This document shows, piece after piece, positions 4,045 through 63,885 of a stretch of 64,000 nucleotides of DNA. Positions within the stretch are counted from its first letter, which is position 1, and each line of letters opens with the position of its first letter. The stretch comes from a virus, in IMG/VR virus record IMGVR_UViG_3300025875_000621, positions 1 to 64,000 of that record. One strand, 5' to 3'. The position numbers and the translations under genes were made by a program. Under the pieces are notes generated by a model. The model saw only the letters and a program-made list of their open reading frames with translations, ran no database searches and had not been told where the DNA came from.

Positions 4045-4667
4045 CCACCATCAGCCTGGAGGAGGAGCGCGGGCTGCTGCAGCTGGCCCGCGCCGTCACC
4101 GGCCAGCACGTGCTCCTGAACCCCGGGGACCGGCACCGCGCTGATGACGTGCTGTCCGACGCGTGCGCCGGGGTGGCGGAAGCCCTCAGCCGCTGGGACC
4201 CCACCGCCGGCAGCCTGAACGGCTGGGCGTACCGCCGCGCCGCCGGTGCCGTCATCGACGGCCAGCGCGCCCGCTCCCCCCTCAGCCGCGGCGCCTACGC
4301 GCAGCCCGGCGGCCCGGAACGCGCCCGCGCCCTCACCCCCTCCAGCCTGGAGGAGCTGGCGGGCAGCGGCTGGGCCCCGCCCACGGAGGACCATGGCCTG
4401 CACGCCCTGGAGGACCGGGAGCTGGTGCAGCAGCTGCTGCAGCTGGTCACTCCTCTGGAGCGGTACGTGCTCATCACCTGCGTGGCCCACGGCTACTCCC
4501 AGACGGAGGTGGCCGCGCACATGGGCGTCACCGTGGCCGCCGTGAACCAGTGGAAGATGCGCGGGCTGCAGCGCATCCGGTCCGGCCGGGCCGCGCGCCG
4601 CTCCGCCCCCAGCATCACCCCGGTGCCGGACACGCTGCCGCCCACCCCGCGGCCGGTGACCCCGTGA
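4041..4667 (+). CDS. Sigma-70 family RNA polymerase sigma factor (FliA/WhiG-like, short)
   Basis: Region 2-like EALSRWDPTAGSLNGWAYRRAAGAVIDGQR; SLEEL; region 4 HTH YSQTEVAAHMGVTVAAVNQWKMRGLQRIR. Confidence 0.8.
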   Translation: MTTISLEEERGLLQLARAVTGQHVLLNPGDRHRADDVLSDACAGVAEALSRWDPTAGSLNGWAYRRAAGAVIDGQRARSPLSRGAYAQPGGPERARALTPSSLEELAGSGWAPPTEDHGLHALEDRELVQQLLQLVTPLERYVLITCVAHGYSQTEVAAHMGVTVAAVNQWKMRGLQRIRSGRAARRSAPSITPVPDTLPPTPRPVTP

Positions 4668-6235
4668 CCCGCGGCGCCGTCCTCCCCGGGCTCACGGACC
4701 CCGCCGTGATGACCCTGGACCAGCTGGACGCGGAGGTCCGTGCCCTGTTCGCGCTCCAGGACCGCGCGAACCGGGACCACCCCCGGGAGCGGTGGCACAC
4801 CCCCGGGGACCTGGCGCAGGCACTGAACAAGCGGGTGGTGCAGACCGCCGCGCTGCAGGCGATTGACGCCGCACTGGTCCGGCTGCTGGACACCCCGGAC
4901 GGCAAGCTCATCATCTCCATGCCCCCGCAGGAGGGGAAGTCCCAGCGGGCGTCCCGCGCGTTCCCCCTGTGGGCGCTGCTGCAGAACCCTGAGCTGCGCA
5001 TCGCCCTGGCCTCCTACGAGGACCGGGTGGCCCGCCGCTGGGGCCGCGTCATCCGGGACGACATAGCCGGCCACCAGGAGGAGCTGGGGCTGTCCGTCCG
5101 CCCGGACGTCTCCGCGCAGCATGAGTGGCAGCTGGCTGACCATGAGGGCGGCATGTACACCACCGGCATCGGTGGTGCCCTGACCGGCCGCCCGGTGGAC
5201 CTACTGGTCATAGATGACCCGATCAAGGACCGGAAGCAGGCGGACTCCCTCACCTACCGGGAGGCCGTCTGGGACTGGTGGACGGACGTGGCCTCCACCC
5301 GTCTGGCCCCGGGCGCGCCCGTGGTGCTCATCCTCACCCGGTGGCATGAGGATGACCTGGCCGGCCGGCTCCTGGCCTCCGCGGAGGGACCCCAGTGGGA
5401 GGTCCTGAACATCCCGGCGCAGGCGGACCACCACCCGGAGAACGGGGAGACGGACCCGCTGGGCCGGGAGCCCGGGGAGTACCTGGACTCCGCCCGCGGC
5501 CGCACCACCGCGCAGTGGGAGGAGCGCAAGGCCCGGTCCGCGCACACCTGGACCGCCCTGTACCAGGGCCGCCCCTCCCCCGCGGAGGGTGACCTGTTCA
5601 AGCGTGGCTCCTGGGCCCGCTACGGCGCCCCGCTCTGGGTGGTCCGGGATGACGGCACCCGCTGGGTGCCGCCCATGCCCGGGGACCAGCTGGCCCAGTC
5701 CTGGGACATGGCGTTCAAGGCCCACGACCAGGCGGACTACGTGGTGGGCGGCGTCTGGCTGAAACGGGGCGTGAACCTGTACCTGCTGGACATGGTGCGC
5801 CGGCGCATGAGCTTCACGGAGACCCTGGAAGCCGTCCGGGTCCTGGCCGCCCGCTGGCCGCAGGCCACCCTGAAACTGGTGGAGGACAAGGCGAACGGCA
5901 CCGCCGTCATGGACATGCTGCGGAAGTCCGTGGTGGGCCTGCACCCCGTGGAGCCGGAGGGCGGGAAGATCGCCCGCGCCAACGCGGCCGCCCCGCTGGT
6001 GGCCTCCCAGAACGTGTGGCTGCCGGAGCCGGAGCTGCTGCCCAACGTGGAGGAGCTGGTGGTGGAGGCCGCCGCGTTCCCGAACGGCTCCCATGATGAC
6101 GCGGTGGACATGATGACCCAGGCCGTCCTCCACCTGGTGGTGAACCCCCTGGTGGGTCAGGCCCTGGTGGGCTCCTCCACCGGGCTCCGCGTGGGCGGTG
6201 GCGGTGGCGGCCGGCGCCCGGGAATCGGGCGGTGA
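4664..6235 (+). CDS. terL: Terminase large subunit
   Basis: Walker A SMPPQEGKS, Walker B LLVIDDP, LTRWHEDDLAGRL, nuclease SWDMAFK / VEDKANG / FPNGSHDDAVD. Confidence 0.95.
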   Translation: MTRGAVLPGLTDPAVMTLDQLDAEVRALFALQDRANRDHPRERWHTPGDLAQALNKRVVQTAALQAIDAALVRLLDTPDGKLIISMPPQEGKSQRASRAFPLWALLQNPELRIALASYEDRVARRWGRVIRDDIAGHQEELGLSVRPDVSAQHEWQLADHEGGMYTTGIGGALTGRPVDLLVIDDPIKDRKQADSLTYREAVWDWWTDVASTRLAPGAPVVLILTRWHEDDLAGRLLASAEGPQWEVLNIPAQADHHPENGETDPLGREPGEYLDSARGRTTAQWEERKARSAHTWTALYQGRPSPAEGDLFKRGSWARYGAPLWVVRDDGTRWVPPMPGDQLAQSWDMAFKAHDQADYVVGGVWLKRGVNLYLLDMVRRRMSFTETLEAVRVLAARWPQATLKLVEDKANGTAVMDMLRKSVVGLHPVEPEGGKIARANAAAPLVASQNVWLPEPELLPNVEELVVEAAAFPNGSHDDAVDMMTQAVLHLVVNPLVGQALVGSSTGLRVGGGGGGRRPGIGR

Positions 6236-6331
6236 GCTGATGAGCTGAACCGTCCAGTGAGCAGTCAGCGGACGAACGCTGAGAGGTGCAGCAGCCGCCC
6301 TCACCAGCACGATGCAGAACGGACCTTCCCC

Positions 6332-6670
6332 GTGACCGTCCTGACCACTCTGACCCTGACCACCCTGACCCTGGAGCCGGGCGTTACCCCGTACCCCGCA
6401 CCGCCGGGCACTGTGCCCTGCGCGGAGACCGCGGAGCTGCAGGCGGCACCGCGGGAGGAGCACCTGGCCGCGCCGGGCTCCCCCGTGGCCCGCGCCTGCG
6501 CCCGGGAGCAGACTGCCCCGGACGGCGCCCTGCCCGTCCGCTCCCCTGAGGGGAAGGTGGAGTACACCGTGCCGCCGCTGCGGTACCTCACAGACCTGGA
6601 GCTGGCCCAGTGGACCCACGCCCTGCTGGCGGAGCACGCCCGCCGCATCCCGCGGTACCCGCGGCCGTGA
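6332..6670 (+). CDS. Hypothetical protein (start uncertain)
   Basis: ORF with typical codon usage. Confidence 0.45.
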   Translation: MTVLTTLTLTTLTLEPGVTPYPAPPGTVPCAETAELQAAPREEHLAAPGSPVARACAREQTAPDGALPVRSPEGKVEYTVPPLRYLTDLELAQWTHALLAEHARRIPRYPRP

Positions 6671-9975: not shown

Positions 9976-11502
9976 ATGGCCGCCCCCTGGCGCCGCGCCG
10001 TGAAGCCGGAGCCGGACGCGGAGACGCTGGCCCCGAACGCGCTGGTGGCCTCCGCTGCCCGCCTGGACATGACGCGGAAGCCCCGCGGCGCGATCCAGCA
10101 GGACTGGCAGGAGGAGGCGTGGAAGTTCTACGACTCCTGCGGGGAGCTGCGCTACGCGGCCCAGTGGATGGGGAACTCCCTGTCCCGGGCCACCATCTAC
10201 GCCGCGGACGTCCAGGAGGACGGCACCCCCTCCAGCACCCCCACGGAGAACGCCGGCGCGCTGGGCGCGGCGCACAACCTCCTGGGCGGCCCCACCAGCC
10301 AGGCAGGCATCCTCTCCCAGATCGGTGTGCACCTCACCATCGCCGGTGACTGCTACGTCATCGGGGAGACCCCCGTGGACGCGGCCGGGGACCCCCTGCC
10401 GGATGACGACTGGTACGTGGCCTCCACGGATGAGCTGTTCTACCAGTCCGGCTGGTGGATCGACCGCGGGAACGGGAAGCGCCTGCTGGACCCCACCCGC
10501 ACCGTCATCATCCGGGTGTGGCAGTCCCACCCGCGGAAGCGGTGGCAGGCGGACTCCCCCACCCGCGCCGTGCTCCCCATCCTCCGGGAGCTGGAGGCCC
10601 TGGTCCGGGTGGCCGGCACGCAGATGGACTCCCGCCTGGCCGGCGCCGGGCTGCTGATCCTGCCCATGGAAGTGCAGTTCCCCGCCCCCTCCCAGGAGGC
10701 GCTGGACGCCAACCCGGGCGCGGACCACCTGATGCTCTCCCTGGCGGAGAACACCCTGACCAGCCTGACGGACCCGGAGGACTCCTCCCGGCTGGTGCCC
10801 ACCGTGCTCCGCGTCCCCGGGGACCTGGTGGAGAAGGTCCAGCACATCTCCTTCGCCAGCCAGCTGCAGAAGGAAAACCAGGAGGCCCGGGAGGCGTGCA
10901 TCCGGCGCCTGGCCCTGGGCCTGGACATGCCCCCGGAGCAGCTGCTGGGCATGGGTGGCATCAACCACTGGGGCGTGTGGGGGGTGGAGGAGGCCGGGGT
11001 GAAGCTCCACATCGTCCCCCGCCTGACCACGATCATCTCCGCGGTGAATGAGGCGTACTACGAACCGGCGCTGGAGAAGCTGGGGCTGGCGCCCTACGCG
11101 TTCACCCTCTGGTACGACGTCTCCCAGCTGACGCAGCGGCCGAACCGCTCCCAGGACGCGCTGGCACTGCACAAGGCCGGGCAGCTGTCTGATGACGCGC
11201 TCCGCGCGGCCACCGGCTTCGGGGACACGGACGCCCCCTCCCAGGAGCAGCTGGTCACCACGTACCTGATGACCCTGGCCGCCGCGCAGCCCGCCCTGGG
11301 CCCCGCGTGCCTGCCCGCCCTCCTCCACCTGTGGAACGGCGGGTCCGTGACCACCATGCCCGTCCTGGTGTTCCCGGCCAACGGCGGAGCGCCCGCCACC
11401 ACCGTCACCCCGCTGCCGGCGCCCGCGCCGGCGGAGGACCGGGGCACCCCCAGCACCGCGCCGGACACCTCCGCCAGCGCACACGTCCGGAGGGCCGCGT
11501 GA
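9976..11502 (+). CDS. Portal protein (cluster B-like actinophage type)
   Basis: WQEEAWKFYDSCGELRY, SRLAGAGLL, IRRLALGLDMPPEQLLG, NHWGVW; lies between terminase and MuF/protease. Confidence 0.9.
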   Translation: MAAPWRRAVKPEPDAETLAPNALVASAARLDMTRKPRGAIQQDWQEEAWKFYDSCGELRYAAQWMGNSLSRATIYAADVQEDGTPSSTPTENAGALGAAHNLLGGPTSQAGILSQIGVHLTIAGDCYVIGETPVDAAGDPLPDDDWYVASTDELFYQSGWWIDRGNGKRLLDPTRTVIIRVWQSHPRKRWQADSPTRAVLPILRELEALVRVAGTQMDSRLAGAGLLILPMEVQFPAPSQEALDANPGADHLMLSLAENTLTSLTDPEDSSRLVPTVLRVPGDLVEKVQHISFASQLQKENQEAREACIRRLALGLDMPPEQLLGMGGINHWGVWGVEEAGVKLHIVPRLTTIISAVNEAYYEPALEKLGLAPYAFTLWYDVSQLTQRPNRSQDALALHKAGQLSDDALRAATGFGDTDAPSQEQLVTTYLMTLAAAQPALGPACLPALLHLWNGGSVTTMPVLVFPANGGAPATTVTPLPAPAPAEDRGTPSTAPDTSASAHVRRAA

Positions 11503-11858
11503 CCGCAGCACCCCAGCAGGCATCTGAGGAGATCGTCTGCGCACACTTGCTCACCCAGCGGGCCCTGGAGCTGGCCGGGAAGCGGCTCCTGACCCGCGCC
11601 GTCCGCGGCACCTACTCCGGGGACCTGCGGGAGCTGCACCAGTTCGTGCCCGTGGCCGCGGACCAGCTGCCCCGCCTGCTGGCCGGCGCGTTCGACTGGA
11701 TGGAGGACCCGTCCCTGGCGGGCATGATCCAGCTGGACCCAGTGCGCTTCCGGCAGGAGCTGGAGTCCTACGTGGGCGGCCTGCTCACCTCCGGCACCGT
11801 CCATGACGTGCGGTACCTGCCGCAGGTGGTCCAGCGCGCACGCCGGAGCGCGGCGTGA
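11499..11858 (+). CDS. Conserved head-region hypothetical protein
   Basis: RALELAGKRLL; coupled between portal and MuF. Confidence 0.7.
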   Translation: MTAAPQQASEEIVCAHLLTQRALELAGKRLLTRAVRGTYSGDLRELHQFVPVAADQLPRLLAGAFDWMEDPSLAGMIQLDPVRFRQELESYVGGLLTSGTVHDVRYLPQVVQRARRSAA

Positions 11859-14629
11859 CCCGCCGCGTGCGGCCCGGTGGCCGTGTCCAGGCCCGCGGCC
11901 CGGTGGGCGCGCACCTCCTCACCTACAGCGCCCCGCCCGTGGAGGAGCAGCCGGAGCCGTGGCCGGAGCCCGGGGACCCGCGCATGGCGGACCGGCTGGC
12001 GGCCGCGGAGCGCCTGGACGCCTACGAGGCCCGCGTGCTGGCCGCGGCCCGCGCCGCCCTCACGGAGTGGACCGGCCTGGTGTCCACCACCGTGCTGCGC
12101 TCCCAGATCACCGCGGCCGCCGGTGACGGCCTCCCCCCGGACCCGGGCGCGATCCCCCCGCTGTCCAGCGCCTGGGACCGCATCGTGAACTCCACCATCG
12201 TCACCGCGATCAGGGACCTGCTGGGTGAGGTGTTCGCCGCCCTTCTGCAGGAGGACCAGGTGGTCTCCGCCCGGCCGTGGCAGGAGGAGTACCTGGCCAC
12301 CGTGGTGAACCGGCTGTCCGGCGTCCCGGATGACACGTTCACCATCGTGCGCGCGGAAGTCCAGGACGCCATAGACCTGGGGGAGTCCATCCCGAAGATC
12401 AGGGACCGCGTGGAGGACGTCCTGGCCTCCCAGGGGGAGACCACCTGGGAGAACCGCGCGCAGGTCATCGCGCGCACGGAGACCATCGGGGCCTACAACG
12501 GCGGACACTTGGCCGCCTGGGCGGCCCGGGATGAGCTGACCGGCGCCACCACGGACAAGGTGTGGCTGGCCACCATCGACAGCAGGACCCGGGATTCCCA
12601 CTTCCGCGCGGACGGTCAGCGGGTCCGCATGGACCGCCCGTTCCGCGTGGGCGGGTTTCTGCTCATGCACCCCGGGGACCCCACCGGCCCGGCCAGTGAG
12701 GTCATCCAGTGCCGCTGCACCATGCTGGACCTGGAGGCGGACGAGGACACCCCGGACACCGCGGAGCGGCAGCTGCGTGACCCCGCAGACGTCCAGGGTG
12801 AGATAGACCGGCGCGCGGAGCAGGAGCCGGAGCCCGTGATCCGCGCGTACGACGACCCGGCGGAGCAGGACGCGCAGGCCCGCTCCGTGGACGCCGCGCG
12901 TGCCCTCACCGCATCCACCGCAGGCCCCGCACCCACGGGGCAGACTGTTACCGCTGCTGGCTCTGGGCCGGGCGTCACTTCCGCACACGAAGGACGCACG
13001 CCCATGCCGCGCACCTGGCGCTCTGACCCCTTCCTGGCCCCGTTCGCGGAGCCCACCGGGGACGGCCGCATCTTCAAGGTGGGGTCCCTCACCCACCGGG
13101 ACCTGCCGCTGCCCCTGCTCTACCAGGAGTCCTCCGCCATGGGCCATGACGGCTCCATCGTGGTGGGCCGCATCCTGGACGTGGAGTTCACGGACGCCGG
13201 CATCGTGGCCTCCGGGGACTACCTGGACGCCCCGGAGGTGAAGGTCGCCGTGGGCAAGGCCATGGCGCTGGTGGAGGCCGGCCTGGGCTCCGTGTCCGTG
13301 GACCTGGCCGCCGTCGTCGGGGAGCTGGTGGACGAGGACGGCAACCCCATCAGCATGGAGGACATCTGGGACGCCTGGGACCGCGGGGAGGAGCCCGTGG
13401 TACTGGACCAGGTGGCGGAGGGTGAGCTGATCGCGTGTACGCAGGTCGCCACGCCGGCTTTCGCGAAGGCCCGGATCGTGCTGGACCCCGTGTCCGCGGA
13501 GGAGAACCCCGCCGGCGGCGGTGACGGTGAGGCGTCCCTGGCGCTGCAGGACGCCGGTGGCGTCAGCATCGCCGTGGGTGACCAGGTGGACGTGGACCTG
13601 GCGGAGGACGGCTCCCTGCGCGGTGAGGTCACCGCGGTGGACGAGGAGGCGGAGACCGTCACCGTCCAGCCGCTGGACGACGACAACCAGCCCGCCGGTG
13701 ACCCCGTGGTGGTGGCGCCCAGCGCCGTCACCGTCACCAGCGCGGCCGCAGCAGCGGAGACGGAGGAGGACGCCGCGGAAGCAGTGGTGGCCGCCGCCGT
13801 GGCCGCCGCGGAGGCCCTGGTCGCCGGCCCCGGCGTGCTCCGCCCCCCGGCGGACTGGTTCACGAACCCGAACCTGCCGGAGCCCACCCCCATCACCATC
13901 ACGGATGAGGGCCGCATCTACGGGCACGTGGCCGTCTGGGGCACCTGCCACGTGGGGTTCTCCAACACGTGCGTAACCCCGCCCACCAGCCCCACCTCCT
14001 ACGCCTACTTCCACACCGGTGAGGTGGTGCTGGACGACGGCAGCCGCGTGGCCGTGGGGAACCTGACGCTGGGAGGGAGGCACGCGGACGTCCGCATGGC
14101 CTACCGCAGCGCGATCGAGCACTACGACGTGCAGGGCGCGGGCACCGGCATCATCCGGCTGTACGAGGACGAGCACGGCATCGCCATGGCCGGCGCCGTG
14201 GCCCCGGGCACCACGGAGGAGCAGGTGTACGACATGCGCCGCTCCCCCGTCTCCGGGGACTGGCGGCGGGTGGCCGGTGAGCTGGAACTGATCGGCGTGC
14301 TGTCCGTGAACGCCCCCGGCTTCCCCACCCCCCGCTTCGCCACGGACGAATCCGGCCGGACCGCGCTCACCGCGGCCGCGTCCGTCCGCCCGGCGGACGC
14401 CCCCCGCCGGCGCCGCCCCGCGGGCCTGTCCCAGCAGGAGCTGACGCGGCGCATCACGGAGACCGTGCGCGCCGGGATGCGGCAGGAGGTCCGCGCGGAG
14501 CTGCGCGCGGCCGCGGAGGAGCAGCAGCGGCGGGAGCGGCTGGAGCGCGTGGCCGCCTCCATCCGGCGTGACCCGCGGAAGCGCGTGGCGCAGCTGGCCG
14601 CCCAGGTGACCGCCGGTGGCAAGCGGTGA
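11855..14629 (+). CDS. MuF-like minor capsid protein fused to capsid maturation protease
   Basis: MuF: RAQVIARTET, KVWLATIDSRTRDSH, HPGDPTGPASEVIQCRC; protease: TGDGRIF, LPLPLLYQ, GHDG, GRIYGHVAVWGTCHVG, SGDWRR. Confidence 0.9.
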   Translation: MTRRVRPGGRVQARGPVGAHLLTYSAPPVEEQPEPWPEPGDPRMADRLAAAERLDAYEARVLAAARAALTEWTGLVSTTVLRSQITAAAGDGLPPDPGAIPPLSSAWDRIVNSTIVTAIRDLLGEVFAALLQEDQVVSARPWQEEYLATVVNRLSGVPDDTFTIVRAEVQDAIDLGESIPKIRDRVEDVLASQGETTWENRAQVIARTETIGAYNGGHLAAWAARDELTGATTDKVWLATIDSRTRDSHFRADGQRVRMDRPFRVGGFLLMHPGDPTGPASEVIQCRCTMLDLEADEDTPDTAERQLRDPADVQGEIDRRAEQEPEPVIRAYDDPAEQDAQARSVDAARALTASTAGPAPTGQTVTAAGSGPGVTSAHEGRTPMPRTWRSDPFLAPFAEPTGDGRIFKVGSLTHRDLPLPLLYQESSAMGHDGSIVVGRILDVEFTDAGIVASGDYLDAPEVKVAVGKAMALVEAGLGSVSVDLAAVVGELVDEDGNPISMEDIWDAWDRGEEPVVLDQVAEGELIACTQVATPAFAKARIVLDPVSAEENPAGGGDGEASLALQDAGGVSIAVGDQVDVDLAEDGSLRGEVTAVDEEAETVTVQPLDDDNQPAGDPVVVAPSAVTVTSAAAAAETEEDAAEAVVAAAVAAAEALVAGPGVLRPPADWFTNPNLPEPTPITITDEGRIYGHVAVWGTCHVGFSNTCVTPPTSPTSYAYFHTGEVVLDDGSRVAVGNLTLGGRHADVRMAYRSAIEHYDVQGAGTGIIRLYEDEHGIAMAGAVAPGTTEEQVYDMRRSPVSGDWRRVAGELELIGVLSVNAPGFPTPRFATDESGRTALTAAASVRPADAPRRRRPAGLSQQELTRRITETVRAGMRQEVRAELRAAAEEQQRRERLERVAASIRRDPRKRVAQLAAQVTAGGKR
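12956..12974 (+). promoter_or_regulatory. GCTGGCTnnGGGCCGGGCG motif before the internal protease start (ATG 13004)
   Basis: 17/19 identical to 60591..60609 upstream of the major capsid gene. Confidence 0.55.
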
Positions 14630-14985: not shown

Positions 14986-15176
14986 GGCAGGATCACGCCA
15001 TGACCAACGGTGAGCAGGGCATGACGTACGGGCAGTACCTGGACGGGATCGCACGGGCGCGTCAGGCCGGACCCTGGTGGTACGGCCCGGCGCGCATCGC
15101 CACCACGGCGACCATCAGCGCGGCACTGCACCTGCTGGTGCGCCGCTCCAGCAGGAAGAAGTAGGAGGAGGAGCAC

Positions 15177-15332: not shown

Positions 15333-15348
15333 CCCCCGCCCGCCTCAC

Positions 15349-15388
15349 GGAGAGCCCGCGTCCCCCACCCCGGGGACGCGGGCTCTCC
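15349..15388 (+). terminator. Intrinsic terminator-like hairpin ending the head operon
   Basis: GGAGAGCCCGCGTCCCC / GGGGACGCGGGCTCTCC 17-bp stem. Confidence 0.75.
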
Positions 15389-47377: not shown

Positions 47378-47385
47378 CTGCGTGC

Positions 47386-55862: not shown

Positions 55863-56448
55863 GGGGTGCCTCCTGGGCGGTGATGGGGTTGACCAGGGCG
55901 GAGACGTCCTGGAGTAGGTGGCGGACGGGGCGTGGCTGGGTGCGGGGCTGCTCACCCACGCGCCACTCCTCCATCCACGGGAGCCGCCAGACCCGGGGGA
56001 CTCCCCCGGTGATGAGGGCGGCCAGCTCCTGCAGCGGCCGCGGGAGGCGGCCGGGGGCGTCTGCCAGCAGGACCAGGCCCAGCAGGTCCTGCTGCAGGGC
56101 CGGGACGCCGCGCCCGGCCCACTGGCGGGCGGCGGCCTGGGCGGCGGTGAGCCCGGCCAGACTGGTGCGGGCCACCAACAGGGTGGGGACCGGGATGCCG
56201 GGCCAGGTGCGCTCCCCGTCGTAGCCGTCCAGCAGGCCGGAGAGAGTGGTGACCCCGGCTCCGCCGTGCGCGCCGGTGAGCCACAGCCTCACGGGCTCCT
56301 GGTGGAACACCTGCTGGACGCGCAGCGGGCCGGGCATGGTGACCAGCGGACCGTGCGGCGTGGTGGGGCCGGTGGCGGGGGCCGCGGGGGGCTCCTCCGC
56401 CACCGGCTCTACCGTCTCTGCTGGGCGGGTCAGCCACGGGTTCGTCAT
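55855..56448 (-). CDS. DUF6668-like P-loop protein
   Basis: GAHGGAGVTTL, LLVART, ADAPGRLPRPL. Confidence 0.75.
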   Translation of the reverse strand: MTNPWLTRPAETVEPVAEEPPAAPATGPTTPHGPLVTMPGPLRVQQVFHQEPVRLWLTGAHGGAGVTTLSGLLDGYDGERTWPGIPVPTLLVARTSLAGLTAAQAAARQWAGRGVPALQQDLLGLVLLADAPGRLPRPLQELAALITGGVPRVWRLPWMEEWRVGEQPRTQPRPVRHLLQDVSALVNPITAQEAPRA

Positions 56449-56536
56449 GCCGCGCTCCCCCCGGTTAGCAACTGGTGACGGTCGGTGCCGCCTCCGTGAC
56501 TTTATCCCAGCTAACGCCACGCGCAACAGTGCCAGC

Positions 56537-57976
56537 TCAGAGACCGCGGGAGACTTCCGCGGCCACCTGCAGCCACGCGTACCGGCTGCGCGGGCTCATC
56601 GCCTGGTAGTCGATGGGCCGGCCACCGGCCAGGGCCGCGTCCGGGGGCACCTCCACCACGGCGCGGGTGAGCTTCCCGAAGTGGGAGTGCACGCGGCGTG
56701 CCAGGTCCCGCTGCGCCCGGACCCGCTCACCGACGGCGGCGGCGGTCTCCGCGCGGACCAGGATGGTGACCGCGTTCCGCACCAGGTCCACCCGCCCGGC
56801 GTCCAGCAGCTGCTCCAGCATGAACGCGGCGTGGTCCACCGTGTCCTCTCCCAGGGACATGGGGACCACCAGCTGGTGGGCGGCGCTGACCGCGGCCTGC
56901 CAGACGGGCGCGATGGAGGAGTTCCCGGTGTCCACGATCACCAGGCGGTAGAAGCGGGACACCAGGCCGTGGACATGGCCGAACCCGTCCGCGTCCACGG
57001 CGTCCCGCAGGCTGGGGTCCTCCGTGGAGGCCAGGACGTCGAAGTGCTGATCCCCCTGCGGGCGCACGTAGTTGTCCAGGTCCCCCATGCGCGCGTTCGG
57101 GCCGGTGAAGCGGGGCAGGTCCCGCAGCAGGTCCACCGCGGTGTTCTTCTGCTCCGGGTTGGCCATGGCCCGCAGTCCCAGCGTGCCCCTGTTCTCGTTG
57201 GCGTCCCAGGCCAGAACTCCGCCGCCGCGGTGCTGACCCAGGGTGGCGGCCAGCGCCAGAACGGTGGTCGTCTTGGGCGCTCCGCCCTTCGGGTTCGCCA
57301 CCACGATGGTGCGGGGCCCGTCGTAGGACCGCTGCACGGTCTGGACGTTCCGCCTCCAGGTCATCTCTGCGCGGGAGGGGCTGGGCTTCACCAGGCCGCC
57401 GGTGCCGCGGCGGACGGCACCCTGCCAGCCCTGCTGCGCGTGCTCCGGGCGGCGGGGCGGCTGGGTGGCCTGCCAGTCCCGGTGGGTGGGGAGCGCGTCC
57501 GGGGCGGTCTCCGCGGGTGCCGGTGCCGGCTCCTCCTCCGGCGCGTGGCGGGGGCGGCCCACCAGGGGGTCCAGCTCCCCCAGCGTGGAGTGCCGGGTCC
57601 CCGGGGCCTGGTCACCGGCCCGCCAGACGGGCTCCTGGGGCAGCGGGTCTGTGCGAACTCGCACAGACCCGGCGGCCTCCGCCGTCCCCGGCCGGGCTGG
57701 GGGCTCCAGCCCGGCCTCCTCCACGCGGCCGTCCGGGTGCACGTACAGCACCCAGGCGCCGGCCGGGTCGTAGGTGTCCACGCGGACGGCGCGCTGCAGC
57801 TCCACGGCCACGTCCTTCACGTGGTCCAGGGCGCTGGTGCGGGCGGTGGCCACGTCCGGCGCTGCCACCGGGCGGTCCGGGCGGCCGGGCATGCTCACCT
57901 CACCGGTGCCGTCCTCCCGGACGGTGGCGGTGATGCGCGGCCAGGTGGGGATGGTGGCGGGGGTGGGCGTGGGCAT
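56537..57976 (-). CDS. MinD/ParA-family ATPase of the tra region
   Basis: NPKGGAPKTT, WDANENRGTLG, IVDTGN. Confidence 0.8.
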   Translation of the reverse strand: MPTPTPATIPTWPRITATVREDGTGEVSMPGRPDRPVAAPDVATARTSALDHVKDVAVELQRAVRVDTYDPAGAWVLYVHPDGRVEEAGLEPPARPGTAEAAGSVRVRTDPLPQEPVWRAGDQAPGTRHSTLGELDPLVGRPRHAPEEEPAPAPAETAPDALPTHRDWQATQPPRRPEHAQQGWQGAVRRGTGGLVKPSPSRAEMTWRRNVQTVQRSYDGPRTIVVANPKGGAPKTTTVLALAATLGQHRGGGVLAWDANENRGTLGLRAMANPEQKNTAVDLLRDLPRFTGPNARMGDLDNYVRPQGDQHFDVLASTEDPSLRDAVDADGFGHVHGLVSRFYRLVIVDTGNSSIAPVWQAAVSAAHQLVVPMSLGEDTVDHAAFMLEQLLDAGRVDLVRNAVTILVRAETAAAVGERVRAQRDLARRVHSHFGKLTRAVVEVPPDAALAGGRPIDYQAMSPRSRYAWLQVAAEVSRGL

Positions 57977-58005: not shown

Positions 58006-59124
58006 TCAGGTGAGCGGGACGCCGTGGGCGCGGAGCCACGGCACGGGGTCTGTGAACTGGCCGTCCAGCTGCACCTCAAAGTGCAGGTGTGGGCCGGTGC
58101 TGTCTCCGTAGGAGCCGATGCGGGCGATCTGCTGGCCGGCCACCACGGGGTCTCCCACGCGGACCATGAGGTCCTGGGGGTACATGTGCGCGGAGCGGGT
58201 GAGGACCTGACGGCCCTGCTCATCCCGCCCGTGGTCCACCACGATCAGGTTTCCGTAGCCGGTGGAGGGCCCGGACCGGATGACCACGCCGGGCCCGGCC
58301 GCGTAGATGGGCTGGCCCAGGCCGGGGGCTATGTCGATGCCGTTGTGCATGGTGCCCCAGCGGGGCCCGTACGGGGACGTCATGCGGCCCACGGCGGGCA
58401 GGGTCCAGCCCTGCGAGGACGCCCCACCGGCGGGCGGCAGCGGCGGGTTCGCACCGCAGGGCAGAGCGCCGGCGCCGTCCACCACGGGGGTGGTGATGAC
58501 CTGCGCTCCGGCCAGGGCGTTCACCACCTGCGTGGCGGGGCCCCAGTAGCGCGTGTAGTGGTTCGGGTCCGCGTTCCGCTGGACGCGGTGCGCGGCCATG
58601 GTGGGCGCCATGGTCTCCCAGCCCTGGACGCTGCGGAGGCCGGGCTGTCCGCCGCGGCCGCCGGTGAAGAACATGGTGGCGCTGCCGTAGGCGTCCAGGC
58701 GTACCTCCCGCGGTCCCCACGGGTCCCGCTGCTGGAACCAGCCCAGGGAGTCCGGCCCGGCCAGGTCCCCGTGGTCCACCGCGGTCAGGGTGGACTCCCC
58801 CATGGAGACCATGACGCCGATGGTCTGGCCCTGGACGGAGAACCCGGCGTCCGCTCCGGCCTGGATGATCGCGGCTGCTCCCACCAGCTGGGCGCCGGAG
58901 TAGCCGGCCACGGAGCCGGTGGGCACGCCGGACACGGACACGGAGACGCTACCGCCAGTGGCAGCGCAGGGGGTCTGCTGGTCCGCGTCATCCTGGGCCA
59001 TGACGGTCAGGAAGATCAGCAGGAGGATCAGGAAAAACACGGGGCTGGCCACCAGCATGGCGCCCAGGGCGGGGAGCGCGTACCGGGCCGCGGCGCTCCT
59101 GGTCACGCCTCCTGCGGTGCTCAC
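58006..59124 (-). CDS. M23 peptidase with lysozyme-like N-domain (conjugative cell-wall hydrolase)
   Basis: GEST, DSLGWFQQR, HNGID, STGPHLHFEV. Confidence 0.88.
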   Translation of the reverse strand: MSTAGGVTRSAAARYALPALGAMLVASPVFFLILLLIFLTVMAQDDADQQTPCAATGGSVSVSVSGVPTGSVAGYSGAQLVGAAAIIQAGADAGFSVQGQTIGVMVSMGESTLTAVDHGDLAGPDSLGWFQQRDPWGPREVRLDAYGSATMFFTGGRGGQPGLRSVQGWETMAPTMAAHRVQRNADPNHYTRYWGPATQVVNALAGAQVITTPVVDGAGALPCGANPPLPPAGGASSQGWTLPAVGRMTSPYGPRWGTMHNGIDIAPGLGQPIYAAGPGVVIRSGPSTGYGNLIVVDHGRDEQGRQVLTRSAHMYPQDLMVRVGDPVVAGQQIARIGSYGDSTGPHLHFEVQLDGQFTDPVPWLRAHGVPLT

Positions 59125-59618
59125 CGGGCCGGTGGGGTGATGCGCTCCACCCGCCAGGGGCTGGCGCCGTCCTCCCGGACCATCAGCACGGCGTAGGTGC
59201 CGCCGTCCGTGTCCACCTGGGCGGTGGCCAGGTACGCGGAGGGGGAGGTGACCGTGGCGTCCCGCACGGTGCGGGCGGTGATGGTGGTGGGGTCCGTGCC
59301 GTACTGCTCTGCCTGGCCGGTGGCGGTGAGGTGCCCGGCCAGCACCTCATACCAGGTCTGCGGGTCCCGGTCCGGCTGGGCGTAGGCGCGCATGGCGTCC
59401 AGGGCCAGCAGGCGGGCGTCCTGCTCCGCGGCCGCATCCCAGGTGGGCGCGGGCTGGGGGGTGCCCAGCCCGGCGTGCTCATCTGAGGGCCCGTCCGCGG
59501 GGGACGGCGCCGGGACGGTCACGGTGACCGGGGCGGCAGCGTCCGGTGGGGGCGGGCTGGAGCAGCCGGCCAGGACGGCAGTCGCCAGCAGTGCGGCAGC
59601 GGTGGTGGGGTAGCGCAC
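59121..59618 (-). CDS. Conjugation-associated lipoprotein
   Basis: Lipobox LAGC; YGTDP; WRVERI. Confidence 0.7.
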   Translation of the reverse strand: MRYPTTAAALLATAVLAGCSSPPPPDAAAPVTVTVPAPSPADGPSDEHAGLGTPQPAPTWDAAAEQDARLLALDAMRAYAQPDRDPQTWYEVLAGHLTATGQAEQYGTDPTTITARTVRDATVTSPSAYLATAQVDTDGGTYAVLMVREDGASPWRVERITPPAR

Positions 59619-59781
59619 GGGGTCCTCCTCCATCCCAGCTAACGGGGCGCACCCATCGAACCACGGAGTGCCACCGTCCGTCACCAGCTGGCGCGGAGAC
59701 CAGCGCGCCCTGTAGTCAACTAGCGTGGACTCCGGCAAGAATGGGCCAGCGTCATCAGGGGCGCGGTGAGAGGAGCTGGAC

Positions 59782-60237
59782 GTGGCGGAGCAGGACGACC
59801 AGCCGGTACCGCACACCCTGGCGGAGAAGCTGGACCGCCTGTTCCGCACGGTGCACCCCGCTGGCCGCGGCCCGTACAGCAGTGAGGAGGTGGCCACCGC
59901 TCTCCGCACCCAGGAGCTGCCCACCATCTCCGCCACCTACCTGTGGCAGCTGCGGAACGGGGCGCGGGACAACCCCACGAAGCGGCACCTGGAGGGGCTG
60001 GCCACCTTCTTCGGGGTGGACCCCGGGTACTTCTTCGACGCGGAGGCCAGTGCGCGGATCACCGCGGAGCTGGAGCTGCTGGCCGCCATGCGGGATCAGG
60101 ACGTGCGGTCCGTGGCGCTGCGTGCCGCGGACCTGTCCCCGGAGTCCCTGGCCGCCGTCCGCTGCATGATCGAACACACCCGGCGCCTGGAGGGCCTACC
60201 CGCTGAGCCCGGAACCCCCGCGGCTGCGGTGGTCTGA
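59782..60237 (+). CDS. XRE/EspR-like HTH transcriptional regulator, divergent from the tra operon
   Basis: LAEKLDRLF.TVHPAGRGPYS...ISATYLWQLRNG.RDNP...LATFFGV. Confidence 0.85.
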   Translation: MAEQDDQPVPHTLAEKLDRLFRTVHPAGRGPYSSEEVATALRTQELPTISATYLWQLRNGARDNPTKRHLEGLATFFGVDPGYFFDAEASARITAELELLAAMRDQDVRSVALRAADLSPESLAAVRCMIEHTRRLEGLPAEPGTPAAAVV

Positions 60238-60251: not shown

Positions 60252-60268
60252 GTACATTCCTGGTGTAC
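60252..60268. promoter_or_regulatory. Operator GTACAT-N5-GTGTAC
   Basis: One mismatch; followed by CCAGCTGAGGAGC. Confidence 0.7.
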
Positions 60269-60297
60269 GTACACGCACCAGCTGAGGAGCTGAGACC

Positions 60298-60495: not shown

Positions 60496-60590
60496 CGGAC
60501 CCCTCCGCTAGAACAGCGCCCGCCCGCGTGTCGCTCAGGACACGTAGGCGGGCGCTCTGCATGTCGGTTACCCTCCGCAGCAGGCGTATC

Positions 60591-60609
60591 GCTGGCTGAG
60601 GGCCGGGCG
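60591..60609 (+). promoter_or_regulatory. GCTGGCTnnGGGCCGGGCG motif upstream of major capsid gene
   Basis: Matches 12956..12974. Confidence 0.55.
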
Positions 60610-60642
60610 CGTGGCACCGCACCCCCCTCAGGAGACCCCGCC

Positions 60643-62415
60643 GTGACCCGTTCCCGGTCCACCACCACCCTGCTGCCCCGCATCCCCCGGGACGTCCCCG
60701 GCTACCTGCTGACCGTGTTCACCGCGCCCGTGGCCACGGAGCCGTTCCAGGCGCCGGAGGACCTGACCGTCCTCACGGACCAGGAGCTGGCGGACCTGGA
60801 GGCCGCGGCGGTCGCCGTCGTGGAGTCCATCGCCGGCATGGAGCACCCCACGGACGAGGACGCGGACGAGGCGGAGCGCGTCGCCGGCGTCATCGCCAGC
60901 GTGCGTGAGGTCTCCGCCGGCCGGGAGGAGGCCGCGGAGGCACGCCGGGCCCGCATCAGCGGCGCCCGTGAGCAGGTCGTGGTCCCCGCCGTGGAGGAGC
61001 CCCCCGCGGAGGAGGTCGTGGTCCCCAACGACGCTTCTGAGCTGACGGACCCGGCGCAGGCCGTGGAGCCGCAGCCGGAGGCCGTCACCGCCTCCCCCGC
61101 CGCCCCGGCCGCGCGCACCGGTGCCACCGCCGCCACCCGGGTCCGGGCCGCGGACGTCGGCACGCGTGCGAACGCCGCCACCGCCCCGCAGCGCCGGCCG
61201 GTCTCCCTGACCGCCGCCCCGGACGCCCCCGGCGTCACCCCGAACAGCACGTTCGACTCCATCCAGGACGTGGCGGACGTCGTGGGCCGCCGGGCCAGCG
61301 AGTACCCGGAGACGGTGGTCCCCGGCTCCGCGCGGGTGAAGATGCGCCACGGCATCGCGATCCTGCGGAAGGACGTGGACGCCAACCTGGTGGCCGCGAA
61401 CACCACGGACAGCCACGTCCTGGAGTTCGCCGCCCAGGAGTCCCGGCTGCGCGGTGGGTCCCTGGTGGCCGCCGGCGGCTGGTGCGCCCCCAGCGAGACG
61501 CTGTACGACCTGGTGGAGTTGGAGGCCGCGGACGGTCTCCTGGACCTGCCGGAGATCCAGGTGCGGCGCGGCGGAATCCGGTTCACCCCCGGCCCGTCCT
61601 TCTCCGACATCTACTCCGGCGTGGGCCGCGGCTTCTCCCAGACGGAGGCCCAGGCCATCGCCGGGGACACGAAGCCCTGCTACAAGATCGACTGCCCGGA
61701 CTTCACGGAGGTGCGCGCCGGGGTGGAGGGGCTGTGCATCACCAACTCCATCCTGCAGAACACCGCGTACCCGGAGCTGACCGCCCGCGTGGTCCGCGGC
61801 GCCCTGGCCGCGCACGCCCACCGGATCAGCGCCAAGTCCATCGCGAAGATGGTGGCCGGCTCCACCGTGGTGGCCCCGTTCGCCGCGCAGGGCGGCGGCG
61901 TGGCCCCCGTCCTGAACGCCGTGGAGCTGGGCGTGGAGGACTACCGGTACAAGCACCGCATGCCCCGCGGCGCCACCCTGGAAGCCGTGTTCCCCGCGTG
62001 GGTGTTCGGCGCCCTCCGCGCGGACCTGGCGTTCCGCTCCGGCCTGGACGCCCTGGACGTCACGGACGCCATGATCCGCGCGTGGTTCACCGCCCGCGGC
62101 ATCGTCCCCCAGTTCGTCTACGACTGGCAGGACACCACCCTGGGTGCCGCCACCGCGGCCGCCGCGTGGCCCACCACCCTGCAGTTCATGCTCTACGCGG
62201 CCGGCACCTGGGTCCGCGGCATGGGCGAGGTCATCAGCCTGGACACGGTGTACGACTCCGCCGGCCTGGCCCAGAACGAGTACGTGGGCCTCTTCACGGA
62301 GGAGAAGCTGCTGGTGGCGAAGCTGGGCCACGACTCCCGCCTGTACACGGTGCCGATCAGCGCCAACGGCGTCACCGCCGCCCAGGCCACCATCCCCAGC
62401 TCCGCGGCGGCCTGA
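60643..62415 (+). CDS. Major capsid (hexamer) protein with N-terminal scaffold-like region
   Basis: SLVAAGGWCAPSETLYDL, LPEIQVRRGGIRF, KPCYKIDCPDF.EVR, AYPEL, QFVYDWQ, YAAGTWV, LFTEE. Confidence 0.92.
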   Translation: MTRSRSTTTLLPRIPRDVPGYLLTVFTAPVATEPFQAPEDLTVLTDQELADLEAAAVAVVESIAGMEHPTDEDADEAERVAGVIASVREVSAGREEAAEARRARISGAREQVVVPAVEEPPAEEVVVPNDASELTDPAQAVEPQPEAVTASPAAPAARTGATAATRVRAADVGTRANAATAPQRRPVSLTAAPDAPGVTPNSTFDSIQDVADVVGRRASEYPETVVPGSARVKMRHGIAILRKDVDANLVAANTTDSHVLEFAAQESRLRGGSLVAAGGWCAPSETLYDLVELEAADGLLDLPEIQVRRGGIRFTPGPSFSDIYSGVGRGFSQTEAQAIAGDTKPCYKIDCPDFTEVRAGVEGLCITNSILQNTAYPELTARVVRGALAAHAHRISAKSIAKMVAGSTVVAPFAAQGGGVAPVLNAVELGVEDYRYKHRMPRGATLEAVFPAWVFGALRADLAFRSGLDALDVTDAMIRAWFTARGIVPQFVYDWQDTTLGAATAAAAWPTTLQFMLYAAGTWVRGMGEVISLDTVYDSAGLAQNEYVGLFTEEKLLVAKLGHDSRLYTVPISANGVTAAQATIPSSAAA

Positions 62416-62445
62416 CCCTTCCCCGGGTCTGACCCACCGCCCGTC

Positions 62446-62489
62446 TGACGTGAGGCCGGGGAGCCCACCGGCTCCCCGGCCTCACGTCA
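62446..62489 (+). terminator. 20-bp perfect hairpin between the two capsid genes
   Basis: TGACGTGAGGCCGGGGAGCC-cacc-GGCTCCCCGGCCTCACGTCA. Confidence 0.8.
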
Positions 62490-62508
62490 TGGAAGGAGCA
62501 CCAGCAGC

Positions 62509-63339
62509 ATGACCACCCCCCTGTTCGGCCAGCGGCTCATCGTGGAGGAGCCCGTCCCGGAGTCCACCGGCTACGGGCTGTACTCCGCGGCCACCGTGGT
62601 GGACTCCACGGACAAGCGGGCCTCCATGGGCGTGCAGTGGGAGTCCAGCTCCTGCGGTGTGGCCGGGACGTACCCGATCAACTGCCCCGGGGACTTCACC
62701 CTCCCGCTGACGGACGGCATCCCGTGGGTGGACGCCGCCCCGTTCGGTGTCGCCGCCGGGCAGCAGTGCAAGCCGGTGGGCGTGGAGCTGGAGCGCATCC
62801 AGGAGCTGGCGCAGGTCCGGTTCCAGCTCTCTGAGCAGTACGCCGTGGAGCGCGCCTACTGGACCGGGGACGTGTTCCCGGACGGTGTGGAGTCCCCGTA
62901 CCTGACGGACCCCTCCGCGGAGGTCCTGCACGGCACGGACCCGGTGAAGCCCGCGCACGCCGTGGGCCTGCTGGAGGCGTGGCTGGGCCACCAGTCCGGC
63001 GCCGTGGGCGTCATCCACGCGCCCCGCGTCCTGGCCCCCGTCCTGGCCGGCATGGCGGACTCCGCCGGCGGGAAGCTCCGCACGAAGGTGGGGACCCGGC
63101 TGGCGCTGGGCACCGGCTACCTGGGCACCGGCCCCGGCGGCAGCGCGCCCCCGGCGGACACCGTGTGGGTGTACGCCACCGGCCCCGTGCAGGTGGTCCG
63201 CGCGCAGGAGCGCCTGACCCCGCAGAACCCCGCAGACGCGCTGGACCGGTCCACCAACGAGGCCCGCGCCCACGCGGTCCGCATCGTGTCCGTGGGGCAC
63301 GCCTGCGGGCTGGCAGCAGTCCTGGTCACCCTGACCTGA
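62509..63339 (+). CDS. Major capsid pentamer / second capsid protein
   Basis: YGLYSAA, EQYAVERAYW, GVIHAP, GTGY, WVYATGPV, TNE; follows the hexamer gene. Confidence 0.8.
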   Translation: MTTPLFGQRLIVEEPVPESTGYGLYSAATVVDSTDKRASMGVQWESSSCGVAGTYPINCPGDFTLPLTDGIPWVDAAPFGVAAGQQCKPVGVELERIQELAQVRFQLSEQYAVERAYWTGDVFPDGVESPYLTDPSAEVLHGTDPVKPAHAVGLLEAWLGHQSGAVGVIHAPRVLAPVLAGMADSAGGKLRTKVGTRLALGTGYLGTGPGGSAPPADTVWVYATGPVQVVRAQERLTPQNPADALDRSTNEARAHAVRIVSVGHACGLAAVLVTLT

Positions 63340-63357
63340 CCTGAGAGAGGACCCAGC

Positions 63358-63885
63358 ATGAGCGAGTTCGTCACCGTCTACGTCAAGAACGGCGACCAGC
63401 AGGAGACCGCCCGGAAGCTCCTGGACGCCGCGGGCACCGACCCGGACTCCGTGGAGACCGTCACCGGCGGCTTCCGCGTCCGTGAGGAGGTGGCCGTGGC
63501 CGCCGGCTACGGCCCGGGGGAGGCCACGTCCGTGGACAGCGGGAACGTGGAGGGTGACGCGCTCCGCCAGAACGGCGGGACCGTCCACCTCCAGCACGCG
63601 ATCGACACGGGGGAGGTGCCGGAGGACGCCATGCCGGCCACCACCCTCACGGACGCCGTGCAGCAGACCGTGGAGCGTGGCGCGCAGCAGGCCGTGGAGC
63701 CCCCGGCCATGAACCCGGACGGGGACACCCCGGCCGCGCCGCCCACCCTCCCGGAGCCCGCGGAGCTGCGCGGGGAGGCGCTGGACCAGGCCCTCCGGGA
63801 CGCCAACCTGTCCACGGACGGCCGGGCGGACGAGAAGCGGGCCCGCCTGGCGGAGTTCCGTGCCACCCAGGCGGCGAACGCCTGA
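63358..63885 (+). CDS. Head-associated protein with C-terminal SAP/HeH-like helix pair
   Basis: ARKLLDAA...V.T..GGFRV; LRGEALDQALRDANLSTDGRADEKRARL. Confidence 0.65.
   Translation: MSEFVTVYVKNGDQQETARKLLDAAGTDPDSVETVTGGFRVREEVAVAAGYGPGEATSVDSGNVEGDALRQNGGTVHLQHAIDTGEVPEDAMPATTLTDAVQQTVERGAQQAVEPPAMNPDGDTPAAPPTLPEPAELRGEALDQALRDANLSTDGRADEKRARLAEFRATQAANA

Follow-up and report, generated by a model that had tools for sequence, protein, structure and literature searches.

We analyzed a window of 64,000 nucleotides, the first 64 kb of the 94,637-bp virus contig IMGVR_UViG_3300025875_000621 (IMG/VR), in which phage head genes and genes for conjugation lie in a single array. The conjugation module appears to be an intact, canonical actinobacterial system with a MOBP relaxase and VirB4-VirD4 transfer components, located directly 5' of the capsid gene, and the element as a whole is predicted to be a non-integrating siphophage of very high-GC Actinomycetota with a closed genome. 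An earlier note on this DNA had read it as a phage backbone with an assimilated, complete-looking conjugation system, as opposed to a freshly landed integrative and conjugative element (ICE) or a chimera, and this central reading withstood every attempt at refutation that we made. Judged from sequence comparison, the association is genuine, recurs in several independent genomes, and is not attributable to artefact or recent insertion. As the best explanation, we lean slightly toward a phage with an intact conjugation module that spreads in two ways, as virions and by conjugation of its own genome.

Both borders of the module recur in relatives. G001 (IMG/VR contig 3300025875_000618, 50.2 kb), found by scanning for the motif of the candidate origin of transfer (oriT) described below, is collinear with our contig through TerS, TerL, portal, protease, the accessory region, the oriT region, the inserted open reading frames (ORFs), MobC, and the relaxase, and reproduces the left junction. 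L014 (metagenome contig Ga0210040_10004613, 17.9 kb) is collinear from the ORF after the coupling protein gene through VirB4, SCO6880, all tra genes, the helix-turn-helix (HTH) regulator, and a small ORF into the capsid genes, at 47-91% amino acid identity, and reproduces the right junction, from tra to capsid. G003 (87.2 kb, CheckV 96%) shows whole-genome synteny with our contig at 35-80% identity and carries the module at the same site; there, the tra operon and the HTH regulator together form a block that is inverted with respect to our contig (about 42.4-52.5 kb, L119-L123, reverse orientation), and homologs of the ParA-like, DUF6668, and two-transmembrane (two-TM) genes were not detected. 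In G002 (107 kb, 63% GC), a homologous module lies beside a portal/MCP (major capsid protein) pair. For the locus scan, a VirB4 alignment of 51 sequences was too diverse, and a 9-sequence version worked. The earlier note had proposed a search for relatives sharing both modules, and these are such relatives, with one junction each in G001 and L014 and the whole genome in G003. Taken as a whole, the contigs G001 and L014 are about 75-90% identical to ours at the amino acid level, and G003 is 55-69% identical.

That the assembly artificially joined a phage to a plasmid of the same metagenome is hardly credible in the face of these data. The record is a metagenomic contig without end repeats, classified as "linear" in IMG/VR (CheckV completeness, 91%), as such an artefact might be; against this, both junctions are seen again in diverged contigs from independent assemblies as well as in a third and a fourth genome, the sequence signature does not vary along the genome, and the identical type IV coupling protein (T4CP) is encoded on a separate ENA contig of 49.9 kb (the ENA contigs holding T4CPs are 17.5 and 49.9 kb long). 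Because the junctions recur in diverged contigs, G003 carries the module at the same site, and composition is uniform, the element is, on the evidence of these sequences, neither a chimera nor a recent insertion, and at least two further diverged phages appear to have inherited the module along with their phage genes.

At 40.8-60.2 kb, the earlier note had placed mobC, a MOBP relaxase, DUF4913, VirD4, VirB4, VirB6-like, M23, and EspR-like genes; family searches and, for VirB4, structure models bear out these assignments, except that the VirB6-like one is tentative. The mob side is preceded by three small genes on the minus strand (39864..40719), the last of which (40369-40719) belongs to the module: its homolog sits divergently 5' of mobC on the conjugative plasmid NZ_CP035496. 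The divergent intergenic region that follows (40720-40945) contains the oriT candidate, an inverted repeat CCCCTGGCGGGG and then TCGCTGCGCTGGGC (40893..40920, plus strand). The repeat and the 14-mer TCGCTGCGCTGGGC are also found 5' of mobC on NZ_CP035496, and the intergenic region that bears them is about 90% identical to that of G001, with flanking genes at 55-64% at the protein level. The predicted DNA fold of the oriT candidate is modest (z -2.25).

Four ORFs are inserted between the oriT candidate and mobC (40946..42703, plus strand), namely, a weak protease-domain paralog, an RlaP/phrog_388 nucleotidyltransferase (41440-42246; phrog_388, E 1e-54), and two small ORFs; all are absent from the plasmid module and show 63-88% identity in G001. 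Phage-type small ORFs within the mob and tra operons had been put forward in the earlier note as an argument against a recent ICE landing; a phage type can be demonstrated for the nucleotidyltransferase but not for the others, which have no PHROG match. The further argument that a head-protease paralog opens the mob operon has to be downgraded: ORF 40946-41443 matches the MuF-protease only weakly (27% identity over 102 amino acids, E 3e-4; phrog_859, E 6e-5), and no match to it was found among phage records. The MobC relaxosome accessory protein (42813..43220, plus strand; PF05713, E 4e-8, above the cut-off) is 72% identical in G001. Between mobC and the relaxase gene lie four small lineage-specific ORFs (43217..44760, plus strand), three of them conserved in G001, for which neither a homolog on the plasmid nor a PHROG match was found. 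The MOBP-type relaxase (44873..46465, plus strand) contains a MobA/VirD2 nuclease domain (PF03432, E 4e-12), is 80% identical in G001 and 53% identical to the plasmid relaxase, and shares with the latter the catalytic tyrosine and the histidine triad (motifs YLVGPGR, HxWHCSLSL, and NDHVH); a PDB sequence search with it returned nothing useful. The gene 3' of the relaxase encodes a conserved protein (46475..47311, plus strand) with a homolog after the relaxase in G003 (44% over 141 amino acids). A plasmid gene of like size follows the plasmid relaxase, but tblastn with our gene gave no match to it. A strong bidirectional terminator hairpin (47340..47385; DNA fold -35.8 kcal/mol, z -6.5) separates the convergent mob and tra operons.

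From its promoter at 59.7 kb, the tra operon reads on the minus strand: lipoprotein, M23, ParA-like, DUF6668, 90-amino-acid two-TM protein, DUF8175, TrbL/VirB6-like, SCO6880, ATPase, lineage-specific ORF, VirD4, and DUF4913. Its first genes encode the lipoprotein (lipobox LAGCS) and a membrane-anchored M23 cell-wall hydrolase, a VirB1 analogue (58006..59633, of which the hydrolase gene occupies 58006-59124; PF01551, E 4e-26). They are followed by the 479-amino-acid ParA-like ATPase (AAA_31/CbiA; phrog_164, E 1e-12) and the DUF6668 protein with a degenerate P-loop (PF20373, E 4e-15), together at 55855..57976, and by the two-TM protein and the membrane-anchored DUF8175 protein (54820..55862), the homologs of which occur in the same order on the plasmid; VirB2/VirB3-like and VirB8-like roles, respectively, are guesses. 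The TrbL/VirB6-like polytopic membrane protein (53602..54819) has five hydrophobic peaks, two of them overlapping, and a Gly/Pro-rich tail; its similarity to TrbL_3 clusters (Atlas features, 0.97; structure TM, 0.70) serves as a lead only. The SCO6880-family protein (52053..53615; NF042935, E 5e-150) consists of a transmembrane hairpin and a VirB4 N-terminal-like domain, and the next gene encodes the VirB4 C-terminal ATPase half, with a canonical Walker A motif, GKPGLGKST (50509..52056). Structure models were used for VirB4 because PDB sequence searches were uninformative, that with the VirB4-like ATPase returning nothing useful. For the ATPase-half model (pLDDT, 89.7), the best PDB matches are VirB4 (4AG5, E 3e-14) and R388 TrwK; for the SCO6880 model (pLDDT, 76), only TrwK/VirB4 chains match below E 1e-7 (E 4e-9). 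As modeled, the two genes together look like a split VirB3/VirB4; fused ATPase homologs of 950-1130 amino acids exist elsewhere (P0312, P0317, and P0320). Translationally coupled between the ATPase and T4CP genes is a lineage-specific ORF (49628..50512) that is 47% identical in L014, is absent from the plasmid, and gave no match in family searches. The VirD4/TraG-type T4CP itself is full length (47838..49631; PF02534 and PF12696), and the DUF4913 gene completes the operon (47386..47841; PF16259, E 3e-35). Divergent from the operon, an EspR/XRE-like HTH regulator is encoded on the plus strand (59782..60237). This regulator is plasmid-type (137 plasmid matches versus 2 phage matches) and is the best-conserved gene of the block, with 91% identity in L014.

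The module is embedded in a phage genome that appears to be closed. Since every frame is open in DNA of 73-77% GC, genes were called with a codon and third-position GC (GC3) model, yielding 157 genes on the contig, almost all on the plus strand and mostly coupled via 4-nucleotide overlaps. The last ORF (g157) runs off the 3' end of the contig, resumes in frame in bases 1-36, and stops 18 nucleotides before the first gene; in G001, the homologs of our terminal two genes are adjacent, and the ends of our contig abut there to within 2 nucleotides. For these two reasons, the contig is taken to represent a closed (circular or permuted) genome from which nothing sizeable is missing. The nearest cellular kin of the conjugation proteins come from Kineococcus, Geodermatophilus, and Quadrisphaera, and the element is taken to infect soil actinobacteria of high GC content, with Kineosporiales and Geodermatophilales as candidate hosts.

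Along the backbone, the genes follow in the order TerS, TerL, portal, MuF-protease, MCP, tail, lysin, and then early genes. The TerL, portal, MuF-protease, and capsid genes are uninterrupted where the earlier note had located them, as gene calls and PHROG matches confirm (E 1e-25 to 1e-161 for terminase, portal, prohead protease, and MCP). The small terminase TerS (phrog_6299, E 5e-25) is encoded just before the circular junction (contig 93568-94113), and TerL (4664..6235, plus strand; phrog_38, E 4e-101) is 90% identical in G001 and 68% identical in G003. A sigma-70-family protein with regions 2 and 4 is encoded at 4014-4667, directly 5' of and coupled to TerL, and has no counterpart in G001. 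The portal (9976..11502, plus strand; phrog_776, E 4e-127; 77% identity in G001) is followed by a MuF-like head morphogenesis domain fused to a prohead protease (11855..14629, plus strand; phrog_859, phrog_2468, and phrog_18402; 81% identity in G001). The next head genes lie at 60643..63885 (plus strand): the MCP (60643-62415; phrog_777, E 1e-160), a conserved head gene (62509-63339; phrog_779), and another head gene. The protease-to-MCP gap thus amounts to 46 kb, comprising about 25 kb of accessory genes and the 20-kb conjugation module. The 130 positions ahead of the MCP gene (60513..60642, plus strand) hold a terminator and a late-gene leader that are about 100% identical to L014, compared to about 85% at the DNA level for the flanking genes. 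A terminator hairpin, a -10-like hexamer, and a leader hairpin can be discerned in this stretch, which appears to be a late-gene control element under strong constraint.

Tail, lysis, and replication genes, for which the earlier note had suggested looking beyond the window, are present and intact. The tail and lysis genes (contig 65-79 kb) belong to a stretch at contig 64-79 kb that encodes a major tail protein, a head-tail adaptor, a 1293-amino-acid tape measure protein, a Dit-like protein, a minor tail protein, and an endolysin. Farther downstream are genes for an HTH_36/phrog_3171 replication initiator, RecT, a PD-(D/E)XK exonuclease, RusA, a WhiB-like protein, a repressor-like HTH protein, and a Xis/MerR-like DNA binder. 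The closest cultured phages by MCP are the Microbacterium phages Leaf, Dewdrop, Rasputia, and Hendrix (about 50% identity), followed by the Wizard-type Gordonia phages (about 45%), and the head genes are assigned to the Rogerhendrixvirus/Wizardvirus type, with an HK97-type head, of a siphovirus within Caudoviricetes. The same gene content bears on the possibility of an element that is first of all a conjugative plasmid and whose virion genes are a domesticated or defective particle system akin to a gene transfer agent or a tailocin. The element is integrase-free, includes a replication initiator and a ParA-like gene, and its particles are predicted from genes, all of which would fit such a plasmid. 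We nevertheless consider it very unlikely: the backbone order is, end to end, that of related phages, with the conjugation block as an insert; TerS/TerL, portal, protease, MCP, a complete tail, endolysin, RecET, RusA, and the WhiB-like gene are all intact; and the late-gene leader is almost invariant between relatives.

Neither recombinases nor flanking repeats were detected. Six-frame searches of the closed contig for Phage_integrase, Resolvase, and rve domains found none, G001, G002, and G003 likewise contain no integrase, resolvase, or att repeats, and no tRNA genes were found on the contig. Searches for direct and inverted repeats across 13-63 kb recovered only low-identity, GC-rich chance matches and no attachment (att) site candidates. 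The absence of an integrase, transposase, and terminal repeats from the module borders, asserted in the earlier note, is therefore corroborated by these six-frame and repeat searches. An ICE inserted in a prophage was rejected as an explanation, there being no integrase or other recombinase, att repeats, or tRNA at the block.

Composition is equally uniform. The whole contig is 75% GC, ranging from 73 to 77% without a step, and the tetranucleotide signatures of tra and phage segments correlate at 0.84-0.90, the same as phage segments among themselves. The avoidance of CGAS/STCG, which the earlier note had described as common to both parts, is present in every segment (observed-to-expected ratio, 0.50-0.60), CTCG being the rarest 4-mer. 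A sharper pattern is seen in palindromes: every segment, tra included, lacks AGGCCT, GGATCC, TCATGA, and TGATCA altogether and has almost no AGCGCT, GAGCTC, CGATCG, or TCCGGA; in tra, the eight together have 3 sites versus about 42 expected. This shortage extends to L014 and G001 but does not reach the same degree in the plasmid, in tra-less phage relatives, or in G003, and it is interpreted as a lineage-specific restriction-avoidance signature.

The conjugation genes also appear to be under constraint. Between our contig and L014, dN/dS is 0.18-0.64 and below 1 in 15 of 15 genes, although dS is compressed by the extreme GC3 bias, so that dN/dS is only a rough sign of constraint; dS is similar for tra genes (0.33-0.58) and head genes (0.21-0.42). 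As to close relatives lacking the block, the nearest tra-less relatives are distant, with MCPs at most 63% identical and the capsid gene within about 3 kb of the protease gene. The MCP profile retrieved 80 relatives, as prophages or contigs, from actinobacterial genomes and a few others, with MCP identity not exceeding 51%, and because none of the 80 has tra genes within 10 kb of the MCP, the conjugation block is not general to this capsid family. Searches with the SCO6880 protein in IMG/VR and with a single MCP sequence in species genomes gave no matches, and a DNA search of 40-64 kb against phages and plasmids recovered only short capsid or T4CP matches.

These data also bear on whether the module is a passenger, that is, a plasmid or ICE module that recombined into a permissive phage site, is merely tolerated, and is heading for decay. 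The interval between protease and MCP is a hot spot for gene insertion in phages of this family, the T4CP tree discussed below suggests module exchange with cellular elements, and a preprint describes cointegrates between a conjugative plasmid and a P1-like phage-plasmid (10.1101/2025.03.14.643293). A passenger is nonetheless quite unlikely. All of the approximately 20 genes are intact in our contig and in the covered parts of relatives that differ at up to 50% of residues, every pair compared has a dN/dS below 1, no recombinase, att repeats, or compositional break is seen, and a capsid-limited genome should presumably shed 20 kb of useless DNA quickly.

Dual transmission is the most economical reading of these observations, one that we place between just short of probable and marginally probable. 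The mechanism would run as follows. A cell would carry the phage without lysis, as a plasmid-like prophage or in a carrier state, until the divergent HTH regulator releases the tra operon. Together, the M23 hydrolase, the VirB6-like protein, the split VirB4, and the accessory membrane proteins would then assemble a channel of the Gram-positive type. At the conserved repeat-plus-14-mer site (40.9 kb), MobC and the relaxase would introduce a nick, and a single strand of the entire 94.6-kb genome, with the relaxase bound to it, would be delivered to the channel by the coupling protein, so that a touching cell would be infected without adsorption. Virion production would remain a second, long-range route. 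In a fuller and more tentative form, possible but somewhat short of probable, a family of non-integrating actinobacterial siphophages, represented by no fewer than three syntenic genomes plus a more distant fourth, would keep conjugation as a second transmission route with the phage genome as substrate, moving between cells in contact, in aggregates or mycelia, without adsorption and independently of receptors; the module would be refreshed from host plasmids or ICEs, and the coupling ATPase would have been remodeled in one sub-lineage.

Several observations weigh against this reading. The first concerns the coupling protein, in which the Walker A motif (residues 163-169, GPRTVKS) is atypical, with valine in place of the glycine before the lysine, while Walker B is kept. 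The glycine preceding the Walker A lysine is close to invariant in P-loop NTPases, and its replacement could cripple ATP binding. Among the 120 best matches to our T4CP, the P-loop conforms to GPR[TS]GK[TS] in 94, with 24 others not resolved by the pattern used, and the G-to-V change is seen only in our protein and that of a close relative (P0122/P0241) and in none of the other 118 nearest homologs; G003 has GPRGGKT. The protein is otherwise conserved despite this fixed change. The coupling ATPase may thus be weakened or repurposed. Second, the T4CP tree pairs our protein with the close relative with full support and does not join G003 to them to the exclusion of 118 cellular homologs; our SCO6880 and VirB4 are 60-66% identical to cellular proteins and only 42-55% identical to those of G003. 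Strict co-divergence of the module with the phage down to G003 is rejected by this tree. Phage and module have stayed together, but the module itself was probably exchanged with cellular elements, and the view of the earlier note that this is one co-evolved element holds only at a shallow depth, not at that of G003, where the T4CP is not sister.

The remaining points concern regulation and lifestyle. When the phage operator and extended ribosome-binding site (RBS) described below were sought inside the mob and tra operons, they were found only at the border and not within, and because of this the regulatory integration of mob/tra into the phage appears limited. The cultured Rogerhendrixvirus relatives are known as lytic phages, a stable non-lytic carrier state is hypothetical, and, as for plasmid-like maintenance, the ParB-like genes are of the nuclease type and the ParA-like ATPase lies within the tra operon. 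Finally, the 94.6-kb genome must fit the capsid, which is plausible only because the Hendrix-type relatives package 95-98 kb.

Some of the same observations would be expected of an exapted machine, that is, a type IV secretion system (T4SS)-like apparatus kept for another job, such as remodeling the envelope, excluding rival elements, delivering proteins or foreign DNA, or a segregation-like function, with the relaxase serving replication or the mobilization of other DNA. The G-to-V change is specific to and fixed in the sub-lineage in an otherwise conserved T4CP, lineage-specific ORFs are wedged into the operons, and the cmdABCDEF genes discussed below provide a precedent, acting in sporulation and chromosome segregation rather than plasmid transfer (PMC2782261). 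We consider exaptation unlikely, given that the full relaxosome set is kept (a strongly constrained oriT-like site, MobC, and a relaxase that retains the catalytic motifs), the P-loop of the G003 T4CP is canonical, and the module is collinear with typed conjugative plasmids.

Outside the module, the largest part of the protease-MCP interval is made up of about 25 kb of small accessory or early genes (14626..39756, plus strand) that are mostly conserved and collinear in G001 and G003; their products include ParB-like nucleases, an HNH nuclease, a TET-associated glycosyltransferase, and a peptidase. Two tandem genes with ParB-like nuclease domains lie in the middle of this region (30928-32225), and their Rasputia homologs are the first genes of that genome, which suggests large-scale rearrangement of non-structural blocks within the phage family. 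Candidate DNA-modification genes are found in a three-gene cassette at 27347-28848, the last gene of which matches phrog_15826 (E 3e-84), and at 32206-33231, where the TET-associated glycosyltransferase (PF20691) is encoded; both the cassette and the glycosyltransferase gene are missing from G001 and thus behave as swappable islands.

The palindrome GTACA-N7-TGTAC has seven perfect sites on the contig (window positions 17646, 18258, 21650, 33961, and 60252; contig positions 79695 and 86196), all intergenic and often followed by the extended RBS CCAGCTGAGGAG. Allowing at most one mismatch, the window contains 8 sites versus 0.35 expected; G001 has 7 sites and G003 has 1. These sites are probably the operators of a phage regulator. 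One operator, GTACATTCCTGGTGTAC, together with the extended RBS CCAGCTGAGGAG (60252..60290, plus strand), precedes a 65-amino-acid ORF (60298-60495) at the border of the conjugation block, after the HTH regulator, in a cassette that is absent from L014.

Phage infection and conjugation are treated as alternatives, the former lethal, high-yield, and receptor-bound and the latter cheap, contact-dependent, and of broad host range. If dual transmission is true, a phage lineage in which selection maintains a complete mating system would amount to a third kind of mobile element, with two routes of spread. Such an element would blur host-range prediction for phages, its genome could bypass receptor-based resistance, and it would confound tools that sort sequences into virus or plasmid. 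The genomes described here provide a concrete, testable system, in which the genes are named, an oriT candidate is at hand, and the coupling protein exists as a natural P-loop variant.

Among known systems, the module most closely parallels that of the 32-kb Xylanimonas allomyrinae plasmid NZ_CP035496, typed by MOB-suite as conjugative, MOBP/MPF_T. In both, a divergent gene, the oriT-like repeat plus 14-mer, mobC, relaxase, DUF4913, T4CP, VirB4 ATPase, SCO6880, VirB6-like, DUF8175, small two-TM, and DUF6668 genes follow in the same order, at 30-62% identity. Unlike the plasmid, our module has no plasmid backbone and lies inside an array of phage structural genes. Additional ORFs separate oriT from mobC (four), mobC from the relaxase gene (four), and the T4CP gene from the VirB4 gene (one); the hydrolase is of the M23 instead of the NlpC/P60 kind, and the T4CP has the P-loop GPRTVKS. 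Arthrobacter and Rhodococcus plasmids and the transfer genes of SLP2 belong to the same group, combining a MOBP relaxase with a SCO6880/VirB4-type T4SS, and SLP2 plasmid homologs of the VirB4/SCO6880 family are reported to be required for conjugal transfer (PMC2782261).

The phage side has its counterparts in Rogerhendrixvirus (Hendrix, Rasputia, and Leaf; 95-98 kb) and the Wizardvirus-type Gordonia phages, with homologous TerL, portal, MuF/protease, MCP, major tail protein, and adaptor. They also resemble our element in that many small genes lie scattered among the structural ones and in having ParB-like nuclease genes, and the Hendrix-type phages are similar to it in genome size. In these phages, however, the capsid gene follows 0.5-3 kb after the protease gene, compared with 46 kb in ours. 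A search of 50,697 phage records for a comparable coupling protein found none in a cultured phage and three weak matches, all in unannotated fecal contigs.

Like phage-plasmids such as P1, N15, and VP882 and the actinobacteriophages that carry parABS instead of an integrase, our element is integrase-free and encodes a replication initiator and ParA/ParB-like genes, such that an extrachromosomal prophage state is conceivable. According to a 2025 preprint, T4SS domains are only sporadic in phage-plasmids, and a 2025 review states that spread both as particles and by cell contact has not been seen. The "conjugative phage-plasmids" reported so far are, as outlined in one preprint, cointegrates of a P1-like phage-plasmid and a conjugative plasmid (10.1101/2025.03.14.643293), and the Streptococcus phage-ICE tandems are presented as a phage and an ICE that accreted site-specifically into a single co-transferable unit. 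Together with the Escherichia coli "conjugative phage-plasmid" p1002-1 and the "conjugative prophage" Phi1207.3, they share with our element the linkage of phage and conjugation functions in one transferable unit. By their descriptions, p1002-1, the tandems, and Phi1207.3 are recent fusions or side-by-side accretions of two elements, whereas our module is interleaved with the phage gene order, is free of recombinases, and is conserved across phages differing at 20-45% of residues.

A different parallel is offered by cmdABCDEF (SCO4126-4131) of Streptomyces coelicolor, which encodes paralogous VirB4-like, SCO6880-like, and membrane proteins, and the deletion of which alters sporulation, pigment production, and chromosome segregation (PMC2782261). 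By analogy, this precedent shows that a VirB4/SCO6880 machine can be exapted. Unlike our module, the cmd genes are chromosomal and have no reported role in plasmid transfer, and the paper describing them is silent on a relaxase, an oriT, or a coupling protein at that locus. The conjugation module and the phage backbone each belong to known families; it is their combination that is unusual.

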